From: Escherichia phage vB_EcoP_SP5M
DNA length: 64,000 nucleotides
Reading direction: 5' to 3' (one strand)
Sequence record: NC_070869.1
Position numbers and translations under genes: made by a program. Of the stretch, positions 22,455 to 23,250 are shown piece after piece. The notes under the pieces are model-generated. The model searched no databases, had not been told where the DNA came from, and saw only the letters and a program-made list of their open reading frames with translations. The stretch's first letter is position 1. Each line of letters starts with the position of its first letter.

Positions 22455-23250
22455 TAACTACTAAGGCCCGTTAGTCAGTAATGATTAATGATAACTGATT
22501 GAATTCAGGGAAACCCCTAACGTAAAGACGAGGGCAATCCTGAGCCAAGACTTAATCTTTCTCCGGTTTTTATTAACGGAGTTACAAACATGAGTAAGAA
22601 AAGATTCGGTAATGAATTGCATCCTCTGTATTACACATGGTTAACCATTAAACAGAGATGTGACAACCCTAAGCACGCTAGTTATAAAAACTATGGGGCT
22701 AGGGGGATAACTAGAGCAGAAGAGTTCTCTGACTTCAAAGTGTTTGCTGCCTATCTAGAATCATTAGATGGTTACGCAGACAGGGAGAGGCTGGGTCTTA
22801 CTTTAGATAGAATAGATGGTTCACTTGGCTATGTGCCAGGAAATCTGAGATGGGCAACTAGAACAACTCAGGCCATTAATTCCAGAAAAAGAAGAACCAG
22901 TAAAGCTACCTACTTAGGAATAGGTTTAAACACCACTAAGAAAAAATGGTCAGCAAGAATCTGCAATGGTAATGAAAGAATCTTTGTAGGTAATTTTGAT
23001 TCCGAGATTGAAGCTCTGGAAGCTAGAAATGCCTACATTATTGAGCATGGATTACCCCATGCCATTCAAAAGATTAAGTAAGGTGCAACGACTATCCAGT
23101 AATGGAGTAGGGCAGAAGCTAATGCTGCTCGAAGCGGTCAGCATCCTATCGTAATTAACGAGGATGAAGATATAGTCTGGACTGCATGGAAACATGCAGA
23201 TGCAGGTAATGCTGCTGGGAGTGTAGTTGCGTACACTCTTGAACATATCG
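22455..23250 (+). mobile_element. group I intron (td-like) carrying an HNH-AP2 homing endonuclease ORF
   Basis: P-like GAATTCAGGGAAAC (about 22501), Q-like CAATCCTGAGCC (22535), R-like AACGACTATCC (23088), S-like AAGATATAGTC (23167), P9-type hairpin CTGCATGG-AAA-CATGCAG; P1 pairing exon GGCU with intron GGCC (U.G at 22454); 3' end approximate. Confidence 0.6.
22590..23081 (+). CDS. HNH-AP2 homing endonuclease (intron-encoded)
   Basis: HNH-like LDRIDGSLGYVPGNLRWAT; AP2-like C-terminal region (KKWSARICNGNERIFVGNFDSEIEA); lies between the Q and R elements of the intron. Confidence 0.7.
   Translation: MSKKRFGNELHPLYYTWLTIKQRCDNPKHASYKNYGARGITRAEEFSDFKVFAAYLESLDGYADRERLGLTLDRIDGSLGYVPGNLRWATRTTQAINSRKRRTSKATYLGIGLNTTKKKWSARICNGNERIFVGNFDSEIEALEARNAYIIEHGLPHAIQKIK

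Follow-up and report, generated by a model that had tools for sequence, protein, structure and literature searches.

Several Schitoviridae have been described in which group I introns or homing endonuclease gene (HEG) insertions lie in conserved genes for replication and transcription. [quoted passage not shown] The host genes in these N4-like cases differ from the one considered here, a homologue of N4 gp44, and none of those papers treats a gp44 intron. Our literature search likewise returned no paper describing the intron studied here, the PhAPEC7 genome paper lying outside the set searched. Database records come closer: in phage PhAPEC7 (NC_024790 / KF562340) LD35_gp48 is a joined CDS and a RefSeq note gives LD35_gp49 as 'encoded in putative intron', RudolfBernhard_Bas96 (PQ850623) also has a joined CDS, and in vB_EcoP_PW8 (PQ362703) the intron is present with the CDS unjoined. 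The PhAPEC7 and Bas96 annotators independently drew the same join, which we count in favour of an intron. An earlier note on the DNA studied here had wondered whether the arrangement might be new to N4-like genomes; given these two annotations and the other published N4-like introns it is not, and the intron is an already known kind of selfish element, annotated earlier in PhAPEC7 and its relatives.

We analysed 64,000 nt of Escherichia phage vB_EcoP_SP5M (NC_070869.1), a stretch that we refer to as a whole as the window, and find a group I intron of 796 nt at 22455..23250 (+) interrupting a Sak4-like ATPase gene (Table 1). We put at roughly 0.9 the probability that the intron is mobile and belongs to group I subgroup IA2, like T4 td, with the N4 gp44-homologue ATPase gene of a G7C-like, N4-type coliphage as its host gene. 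The window's own polymerase gene is also split, by an HNH insert in which no ribozyme is detectable.

Table 1. Features of the interrupted ATPase gene, the intron and its ORF, in window positions. Helix numbers follow the covariation analysis of 11 homologous introns, of which L027 is one.
Feature	Position	Strand	Description
Exon 1, gp44-like Sak4/AAA_24 ATPase	22122..22454	+	111 codons; Walker A GFSASGKS, Walker B-like IIIDSATF; ends ...AAG GCU
Group I intron	22455..23250	+	IA2, td-like; UAAC... start, ...AUAUCG end, omega G 23250
P1	22451..22468	+	exon GGCU (22451-22454) and U22455 pair with internal guide AGGCC (22464-22468)
P2 hairpin, GUAA loop	22469..22490	+	helix 2; both sides changed in 8/9 pairs
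P3 5' strand CUGAUU	22495..22500	+	partner 23136-23141; helix 3, 100% paired, 3 pairs changed on both sides
P4-P5-P5a domain ('P' and 'Q' elements of the earlier note)	22505..22543	+	P4 invariant; P5/P5a register less certain
P6 5' strand GCC	22544..22546	+	partner 23082-23084 GGU; ORF looped out of P6
Shine-Dalgarno (SD) hairpin CUCCG...CGGAG	22561..22581	+	3' strand is the GGAG Shine-Dalgarno, 8 nt before the ORF AUG
Intron ORF, 163 aa	22590..23081	+	N-terminal helical region (WxxxxQRCxNP...YKNYGARGI); putative HNH-like beta-beta-alpha unit, His absent (LDRID...Y81...NLRW...Q..N); C-terminal AP2, about 105-155
P6 3' strand GGU	23082..23084	+	covariation
P7 5' strand GACUAU ('R')	23090..23095	+	partner 23172-23177; helix 8, 100% paired; L027 variant GAUCAU/AUGAUC
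P7.1 (23096-23105) and P7.2 (23110-23130)	23096..23130	+	helices 9 and 10; peripheral, characteristic of subgroup IA; compared with td
P3 3' strand GGUCAG	23136..23141	+	covariation
P8 hairpin	23142..23166	+	helix 11; 94% paired
P7 3' strand AUAGUC ('S')	23172..23177	+	covariation
P9 (23182-23199, GAAA loop), P9.1 (23202-23215), P9.2 (23219-23238)	23182..23238	+	helices 12-14
Exon 2, ATPase gene	23251..23670	+	starts UGG GGA GAC = W G D; stop 23668-23670

Excision of exactly 796 nt gives a 250-aa protein that is identical to the uninterrupted G7C gp44 at 250/250 positions, and the gene is uninterrupted in about 83 related phage records, a comparison with intron-less homologues being one of the checks that the earlier note had suggested. 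The comparison of borders alone permits a 1-nt slide, because a T opens both the intron and exon 2; by the group I rules that the exon ends in U and the intron in G, the slide resolves to 22455..23250. These are exactly the borders first proposed from the sequence, and every sequence feature listed with them lies where it was placed. All 11 homologous introns follow a U and end in G, and splicing restores the ORF at all 11 loci. In the window the exon 1 ORF (22122..22457) is closed, as had been noted, by an in-frame TAA that immediately follows ...AAGGCT and forms the first three bases of the intron (22455-22457). The predicted ligated junction, with 22454 joined to 23251, reads CCCAAAAGGCT↓TGGGGAGAC (the arrow marks the splice point) and encodes ...NTQKA↓WGDF....

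The spliced product matches PHROG 124 'Sak4-like' at 7.6e-50, and Pfam AAA_24 scores 43.3 bits on it (cut-off 27) over residues 14-218, across the junction, whereas the separate exons fail; the Sak4/AAA_24-like nature of the host gene was thus correctly recognised at the outset. The Walker B-like IIIDSATF had been placed in the downstream reading frame but is encoded 19 codons ahead of the intron, within exon 1. These matches support identification of the host gene as a Sak4-like AAA_24 ATPase, the N4 gp44 homologue of a G7C-like Gamaleyavirus. It occurs in all relatives examined. Its synonymous to non-synonymous differences are 24:1 to 60:6, and by these ratios it is kept intact under purifying selection. 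The gene is called in pieces in PW8 and in all nine metagenomic contigs examined, and in the window the short ORFs 22122..22457 and 23227..23670 should be annotated, following PhAPEC7 and Bas96, as a single joined gene for a Sak4-like ATPase of 250 aa.

A covariance-model search, which the earlier note had suggested, gave a match of the intron to Rfam RF00028 at 58.3 bits (gathering score 50; E 3.4e-12; model positions 1-253), far beyond chance, and no match in intron-less G7C. Rfam's internal alignment is only partly right, as it assigns the long ORF to the P8 loop rather than to P6 and pairs P6 and P8 strands with ORF sequence; we dropped it, covariation backing P6 as GCC/GGU and P8 as 23142-23166. 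At the gathering score Rfam gave no match in the related loci L021-L024 nor in T4 td, though these are homologous by eye. Because the long ORF defeats the model, a missing Rfam match is no evidence of absence, and the gathering threshold overlooks ORF-bearing relatives of this kind.

The internal guide GGCC occupies intron nt 11-14 (22465-22468) and, as the earlier note described, gives a P1 with a U.G wobble at the 5' splice site; this pair, U22454.G22465, is invariant in 11/11 homologues, the flanking P1 pairs covary, and P1 (helix 1) is 100% paired with GGCU/GGCC, AGCU/GGCU and GCGU/GCGC variants. The core elements follow in order, P-like GAATTCAGGGAAAC at 22501-22514, Q-like CAATCCTGAGCC at 22535-22546, R-like AACGACTATCC at 23087-23097 and S-like AAGATATAGTC at 23167-23177, and the CTGCATGG/CATGCAG hairpin lies at 23182-23199. 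Across helices P1-P9.2 of the 11 homologous introns, 90.9% of cells are paired, compared with 33-41% when the partners are slid, although this measure is biased to the unslid structure, the helix model having been drawn from the window sequence. Changes on both sides, which are not so biased, are found in 44 of 76 pairs, against 7-18 with slid partners, and none of 500 shuffles attained any of the covariation measures. The MAFFT core alignment misplaces loops in P2 (L027 and L029), P9 and P9.2, and we did not realign them, which makes the pair counts conservative. Besides P1, helices P3, P6, P7, P7.1 and P9.1 are 100% paired among the homologues, and P3, P6 and P7 have all changed on both sides, compensatory changes that keep the P3/P7 pseudoknot and the core; the third pair of P6 (helix 7) is variously G-C, C-G, U-A or A-U. 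The register of P5 is not settled between C60-G80 (Rfam) and C61-G80 (used here), and helices 5 and 6 are paired at 85% and 66%. An unconstrained fold of the intron yields the local helices, with z = -3.8. P10, made up of U-A, G.U and G-C plus a mismatch, is weak. Group I identity is therefore supported from three sides, by the covariance model, by exact restoration of the ORF and by covariation in all helices, as the earlier note had proposed. In L027 and L029 the splice point is shifted by 1 nt relative to other introns of the lineage and the guide sequence has changed to match; this appears to be a natural case of intron sliding and is a small novelty.

The same evidence bears on whether the element splices at all. 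It could be a non-splicing mobile insertion that has split gp44 into a 111-aa N-terminal fragment and a cooperating C-terminal fragment re-initiated within the insert; an in-frame stop does end exon 1, a 147-aa ORF in frame with exon 2 starts at a TTG (23227) that has GGGAG 5 nt before it, and there is precedent both within the same phage group, in the 10Gb polymerase (bioRxiv 10.1101/542787), and in the split polymerase gene of the window itself. However, a complete ribozyme core that is held by compensatory changes, including the P1 pairing with the exon, would be purposeless without splicing; the TTG and GGGAG sit within the P9.2 hairpin; the downstream ORFs of the nine relatives start variably (102-200 aa), so there is no conserved re-initiation site; and the insert follows U and ends in G in 11/11 copies. 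We consider a split gene very improbable.

For a splicing intron, the pre-mRNA is computed to fold into the canonical P1-P9.2 core with its P3/P7 pseudoknot. From the established chemistry of the family we infer guanosine-dependent splicing, in which an external guanosine would attack after U22454, the freed 3'-OH of the exon would attack after G23250, and the exons would be ligated, the phage thereby retaining a working ATPase. The Shine-Dalgarno sequence of the intron ORF is paired in 11/11 homologous introns despite differing hairpin sequences, although these hairpins are modest (z -0.6 to -5.4). Gott et al. in 1988 reportedly placed the ribosome-binding site of the T4 intron ORF inside a hairpin, and that of the window ORF is situated likewise; with its site so buried the ORF is probably translated at a low level, such that ribosomes would not disturb ribozyme folding, as in T4 intron ORFs. 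A scan of 21900-23800 for promoters and terminators found no excess over shuffles, and we thus claim no internal promoter for the ORF.

The distribution of the intron points to movement. It is present in only 4 of 87 phage records, and between the window and PW8 the exons differ by 8.4% but the intron by 0.7-1.4%, or 6-12 times less. The ribozyme halves of the four phages are 98.8-100% identical (0-2 positions differ) while their exons differ by up to 8.9%, and the intact ORF copies differ by synonymous and non-synonymous changes in ratios of 7:0, 15:2 and 20:2. This low intron divergence, together with ORF differences that are nearly all synonymous, indicates recent mobility, and by the same ratios the intact ORF copies are under strong purifying selection. 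Sporadic occurrence, combined with less divergence in the intron than in the gene that hosts it, is the pattern seen with mobile introns. These data also speak to the idea that the element is a relic in decay, with little or no splicing, and is tolerated because gp44 is dispensable. The literature retrieved gives N4 gp44 no established function, P10 is weak, and the PhAPEC7 ORF is already a pseudogene, but the near-identity of the ribozyme halves in phages with diverged exons, the maintenance of every helix by compensatory changes across deep lineages, and a host gene that is kept intact under purifying selection (24:1 to 60:6, as above) and occurs in all relatives examined make such decay extremely improbable.

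An active mobile intron would be expected to spread in mixed infections, where its endonuclease may cut an intron-less gp44 near ...AAR GCN↓TGG GGN... (KA↓WG) and repair from an intron-bearing genome would copy the intron and a few flanking exon bases, i.e. homing. The G7C site is CAGAAAGCC↓TGGGG and the IME11 site is CAAAAGGCT↓TGGGG; intron-bearing alleles of G7C-like phages depart from G7C at -7, -4 and -1, where they match IME11- and PW8-type flanks, and the 9 nt of 5' flank in the intron-bearing allele are the same in IME11. Compared over 120 nt, the closest intron-less allele agrees with the ligated junction at 95.8% and none agrees fully, and hence neither a recent precise loss nor a naive recipient allele can be identified. 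Nine N4-like metagenomic contigs have a homologous intron at the same KA↓WG site, with host proteins 39-92% identical to that of the window, and splicing them restores ORFs of 238-251 aa. KA↓WG may be regarded as a homing site in a conserved replication/recombination gene of N4-like phages, and one that helps to trace recombination among therapeutic-candidate phages.

The nature of the intron-encoded protein is less straightforward. It had been described as an HNH-AP2 homing endonuclease; the AP2 domain is confirmed by its fold, in which three strands form a sheet against a helix, and by a sequence-profile match, whereas no ordinary HNH domain was recovered. Pfam returned no family for the ORF even at E <= 10 and NCBIfam none, a precomputed HNH domain is absent from all 120 listed homologues, a single-sequence PDB search gave a weak AP2 match only, and Foldseek against the PDB gave neither a nuclease nor an HNH match; the only HNH-named profile matches are to PHROG families labelled 'HNH endonuclease', and it took a profile search, a structure model and PHROGs to characterise the protein. 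The position of the HNH catalytic His, expected where the first beta strand ends and aligned with the DH of I-HmuI VVDHKDG, is Arg74 in 50/50 aligned sequences. We assign the protein instead to the atypical IPA-HNH class of ICP1 gp59, gp115-116 and gp209, which it appears to fit by its HNH-like domain missed by Pfam, its AP2 domain and its homology to ICP1 gp59. Profile-profile alignment with gp59 (hhalign) gives 96.7% probability and E 3.8e-10; pairwise BLASTP finds insignificant similarity, which places the relation at superfamily level.

Given these departures, we considered whether the ribozyme splices while the ORF is not, or never was, an endonuclease, but rather a DNA- or RNA-binding maturase or regulator, with the intron now passed on vertically or spread only through ordinary recombination. 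In keeping with this, Arg replaces the general-base His throughout the aligned sequences (Lys in ICP1 gp59), HNH matches are absent in Pfam and Foldseek, His-Me groups with neither the His nor a Tyr equivalent to it are regarded as inactive (PMC5714182), and PhAPEC7 is viable despite its truncated ORF. Active homing, however, predicts the low divergence of the intron relative to the exons and its patchy distribution, the intact ORF copies are strongly purified by selection, and about 1,200 phage records match the family, in typical HEG contexts, the family having been classed as HEGs (Barth et al. 2023, PMC10448857). In addition Tyr81, in the loop between two strands, is invariant, as are N85, Q94 and N97, a pattern that resembles PacI, the best nuclease fold match of the ORF, in which a loop Tyr stands in place of the His (PMC5714182). 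A non-endonuclease role thus seems unlikely, and we regard the ORF product as a predicted DNA endonuclease that is site-specific and combines a divergent, His-less HNH-like domain with a DNA-binding AP2 domain, homing presumably proceeding by its cleavage of the intron-less allele. More tentatively, this very large phage endonuclease family, in which the His is always Arg (or Lys, in ICP1 gp59) and the loop Tyr is invariant, might possibly cut DNA in the manner of PacI with the Tyr replacing the His, although we would not favour that. Wider interest in the locus is limited to this His-less HNH-like/AP2 endonuclease. A PacI-like loop-Tyr mechanism is not known to have been demonstrated in any homing endonuclease.

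Comparison with T4 td bears out the earlier description of the intron as td-like. Both introns have the helix order P7-P7.1-P7.2-P3'-P8-P7'-P9-P9.1-P9.2, their 5' core halves are 70% and their 3' core halves 79% identical, both start with UAA, ending the upstream frame, and both have the ORF looped out of P6, starting at intron nt 135 in the window and 131 in td. The placement of P7.1/P7.2 between P7 and P3' and of P9.1/P9.2 at the 3' end, with covariation and the td match, argues for subgroup IA2, and with the 11 diverged copies the secondary structure of a phage intron of this group is well supported. The two differ in host gene (thymidylate synthase in T4, a Sak4-like ATPase here), in length (1016 nt for td, 796 nt here) and in endonuclease, I-TevI being GIY-YIG and the window protein His-less HNH-like with AP2; the window intron passes the Rfam gathering score that td fails in the same kind of scan. 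HNH-AP2 HEGs are a further comparable group (Magnani et al. 2004, as cited in PMC10448857). The IPA-HNH protein ICP1 gp59 and the window ORF share an N-terminus that is HNH-like but too divergent for Pfam HNH_3, a C-terminal AP2 and the lack of the motif His, but gp59 has 272 aa and the window ORF 163 aa, and the ICP1 IPA-HNH genes are described as free-standing near essential genes (Barth et al. 2023, PMC10448857), whereas that of the window is intron-encoded. The best database match over the stretch compared is 97.8%. PhAPEC7, Bas96 and PW8 have the gene, the site and the 796-nt length in common with the window, at about 99% identity; the intron ORF is intact in the window, PW8 and Bas96, whereas the PhAPEC7 copy has a TGG>TAG stop and D76G.

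The phage is a G7C-like N4-type coliphage of the genus Gamaleyavirus, and its segment 22100-23700 aligns at full length to PhAPEC7, Bas96 and PW8 (97.8%, 97.3% and 95.3% identity respectively). Dozens of other relatives (including G7C, Mimir124, IME11 and Bp4) align to only 805 of its 1601 bases, and the window therefore carries a 796-bp insert (see table). Removal of 22455..23250 and translation gives a 250-residue protein matching gp44 of G7C, which is uninterrupted, at 250/250 residues; the spliced DNA is identical to G7C at 726/753 positions. Because a T starts both the intron and exon 2, comparison alone would permit a 1-nt slide of the boundaries, but this is the sole choice giving an exon-final U and an intron-final G. 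The boundaries proposed in the earlier note are thus exact, and the motifs it quoted all lie where it placed them. Its identification of the host gene as an ATPase also holds: the spliced product matches Pfam AAA_24 with 43.3 bits (cut-off 27) in a single match spanning the junction, and PHROG 124 'Sak4-like ssDNA annealing protein' at 7.6e-50, whereas exon 1 alone has no AAA_24 match and exon 2 alone scores 21.1 bits. In Klebsiella phage vB_Kpl_K57alpha1.2 (OY979416; locus L014, 1-920), a 'tail spike protein' pseudogene annotated antisense over the gp44 homologue looks like an annotation error; the junction codon of this homologue is AGT (Ser), not GCN (Ala).

Features of the window discussed in the text
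Feature	Coordinates	Remark
DNA polymerase gene	14889-18163	N4 gp39 homologue, split
Polymerase ORFs	14889..16853 and 17333..18163	C-terminal ORF has its own ATG within the insert
Site of PhAPEC7 polymerase insert	16560/16561	146 bp upstream of the window's insert; PhAPEC7 insert absent
Polymerase insert	~16706-17419	between ...KDPQKLKVY and (TD)GYDGHSLRAY
Endonuclease in polymerase insert	16729..17370	canonical HNH_3 + NUMOD4
Primase gene	19855-22065	PriCT_1
111-codon ORF	22122-22457	after primase
Rfam Intron_gpI match	22445-23199
Intron	22455..23250	796 nt
Shine-Dalgarno hairpin	22561-22581	between P6 and intron ORF
163-codon ORF (intron ORF)	22590-23081	after 111-codon ORF
147-codon ORF	23227-23670	different frame; SSB homologue next
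tRNA genes	27032-27104 and 27114-27190

A single Rfam Intron_gpI match was found in the window even at permissive thresholds (58.3 bits, gathering 50; E 3.4e-12), and none in intron-less G7C. We drew a helix model from the window sequence and by analogy with td, in which P1 pairs exon GGCU and U1 with the guide AGGCC, P6 (GCC/GGU) encloses the ORF, and the remaining helices are P2, P3, P4, P5/P5a, P7, P7.1, P7.2, P8, P9, P9.1 and P9.2. Folding the core without its ORF and without constraints recovered all of the local helices (z = -3.8).

The four GenBank copies of the intron are about 99% identical and thus uninformative for covariation, which was assessed in a MAFFT alignment of 11 ORF-less cores, with pairing partners slid by 1-3 columns as the control. 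Standard pairs occupy 90.9% of cells in the model and 33-41% in the slid controls, a comparison inflated by deriving the model from the window, as the counts of pairs changed on both sides (44/76 versus 7-18) are not. The covariation score is 0.406 (0.06-0.10 when slid), and no measure was attained in any of 500 shuffles. The exon and guide strands of P1 change together (GGCU/GGCC, AGCU/GGCU, GCGU/GCGC), four forms of the third P6 pair are seen (G-C, C-G, U-A and A-U), and P3 and P7, which cross to form the pseudoknot, are paired in 100% of cells, some of their pairs having changed on both sides. The cells left unpaired belong to P5/P5a, where the register is uncertain, and to P2, P9 and P9.2, in which loops differing in length were misaligned by MAFFT. 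The group I intron recognized by the earlier note thus has both a profile match and covariation-backed helices.

Homologues of the intron ORF led to nine metagenomic N4-like phage contigs (several about 67-80 kb), all with the gene order primase, short ORF, homing endonuclease gene (HEG), short ORF, SSB. A recognizably homologous intron occupies the same location in all nine, and splicing at the inferred sites gives ORFs of 238-251 residues with a conserved (K/T)A-WG junction and 39-92% identity to the window's host protein. The intron lineage is widespread and old in N4-like phages. Nine of the 11 introns have their inferred splice point directly behind the Ala codon; in two metagenomic contigs (L027 and L029) it falls 1 nt further 3', behind the U that begins the Trp codon (exon ...GCGU, guide GCGC, exon 2 GGGG...). 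There the intron appears to have slid by 1 nt, with the guide changed to match.

The insert is present in 4 of 87 phage records having the junction region. Between the window and PW8 the exons differ at 63/753 positions (8.4%), and the 5' ribozyme, ORF and 3' ribozyme at only 1/135, 7/492 and 2/169 respectively, which indicates that the element moved recently between diverged genomes. The intron is preceded by CAAAAGGCT in 4/4 intron-bearing alleles and the equivalent flank is CAGAAAGCC in otherwise similar G7C-type intron-less alleles, with differences at -7, -4 and -1. The latter two are needed for P1 and its U.G wobble, but -7 lies outside P1, suggesting a short co-conversion tract; IME11 has the intron-type flank without the intron. 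Differences among intact ORF copies are almost all synonymous (7:0, 15:2, 20:2). The PhAPEC7 copy (locus L001, 1991-2254) is a pseudogene with TGG>TAG at codon 88 and D76G in the motif, which accounts for its short 264-nt 'restriction endonuclease' CDS and is a state typical of decaying HEGs. In Vibrio phage 1.097.O (MG592470; locus L024, 1783-2974), a homologue of the intron ORF with 45% identity is free-standing and overlaps an AAA_24 gene at that gene's 3' end. The gene is uninterrupted and retains the ...MKAWGDY... site. About 750 bp downstream lies another ORF, which has a faint match to AP2. The free-standing homologue beside an intact site fits the notion that such HEGs may target the KAWG site whether intron-borne or free.

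The intron ORF is matched strongly by PHROG families labelled 'HNH endonuclease' (phrog_374, 2.6e-39), and searches of it against Pfam and NCBIfam gave no match. An alignment of 50 homologues contains the motif L-D-R-I-D...Y...N-L-R-W...Q..N with R74, Y81, N85, Q94 and N97 invariant, and the family profile aligns this to I-HmuI at its HNH motif (E 0.033), with R74 opposite the DH histidine, so the canonical general base is absent throughout the family. The AlphaFold model (pLDDT 92.3) is helical in its N-terminal part, has a beta-beta-alpha unit at residues 71-96 and ends in a sheet of three strands with a helix (111-153); this C-terminal domain folds as AP2/ERF, with a Foldseek probability of 1.00 and E 3e-9 for the family profile against WRI1. 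IPA-HNH HEGs join AP2 domains to HNH-like domains that have diverged beyond the reach of Pfam HNH_3 (Barth et al. 2023, PMC10448857). Their founding member, ICP1 gp59, is matched by the family profile with 96.7% probability and has a Lys at the position of R74. By tblastn, 1,199 phage records match the family. Of the HNH-AP2 endonuclease proposed earlier, the AP2 fold and the family label are right; the protein falls outside the canonical HNH group on two counts, lacking the profile match as well as the catalytic histidine.

The GGAG situated 8 nt before the start codon of the intron ORF forms the 3' side of a hairpin. In minimum-energy folds of the stretch from P6 to this AUG, a purine-rich Shine-Dalgarno sequence is paired in 11/11 copies, with varying hairpin sequences (CUCCG/CGGAG, ACCCUUU/AAAGGGU, CUCCAAGUAUU/AAUACUUGGGG and others). 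T4 intron ORFs have a counterpart that limits translation from the precursor, and by analogy the hairpin should do so here. No promoter or terminator signals stand out around the ORF.

The insert in the window's polymerase gene contains no intron detected by Rfam; it is 99.4% identical to that of PD205 and about 77% identical to those of VEc25 and AlfredRasser-type phages, in which two polymerase CDSs are annotated. A similar insertion, in g39 of phage 10Gb, is not spliced (bioRxiv 10.1101/542787). PhAPEC7 has a different HNH-bearing polymerase insert (24510-25214; locus L019), annotated 'located in intron of DNA polymerase', and close relatives thus use two alternative insertion sites in one gene. 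Of the two tRNA genes, ARAGORN identifies one as tRNA-Ile (anticodon AAU) and names no anticodon for the other, to which Rfam gives a score of only 42.5 bits; PhAPEC7 annotates a 'tRNA-Xle' in the corresponding region.

The suggestion that the arrangement might be new to N4-like genomes does not survive, as the element is of a known kind annotated in close relatives. In the RefSeq and GenBank records of PhAPEC7 the exons are joined, and the note on gp49 reads 'encoded in putative intron located in gene ... similar to gp44 from N4'; Bas96 also has the join, and PW8 does not. In G7C-like phages the g16 intron is spliced in vivo and the g39 insertion is non-spliced (bioRxiv 10.1101/542787), pVa5 has an intron in its thymidylate synthase gene (PMC5746245), and JA1 and VchO139-I have split genes (PMC3670811); our literature search yielded neither a publication dealing with the gp44 intron nor an experimental test of it. 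Added here are its exact boundaries and covariation-backed structure, the breadth and age of the lineage, the 1-nt splice-point shift in two lineages, and the endonuclease lacking the histidine.

Many phages also carry, in their terminase, polymerase, nrdD and thyX genes, introns related in part to that of the window, with 67-80% identity across portions of the core. The HNH-bearing second intron of rV5-like large-terminase genes (compared in phage rV5, L009, and Shewanella phage 1/40, L008) shares about 70% identity at its 3' end with the 3' half of the window ribozyme; in these genes Rfam detects only the ORF-less introns at gathering score. The likeness to T4 td noted earlier is borne out, with 56/80 identical positions in the 5' core and 115/146 in the 3' core, a common helix order including the IA-specific P7.1/P7.2 and terminal P9.1/P9.2, an ORF starting at nt 131 in td and nt 135 in the window intron, and near-identical 3' ends (UGAACAUAAUG in T4 td and UGAACAUAUCG in the window).
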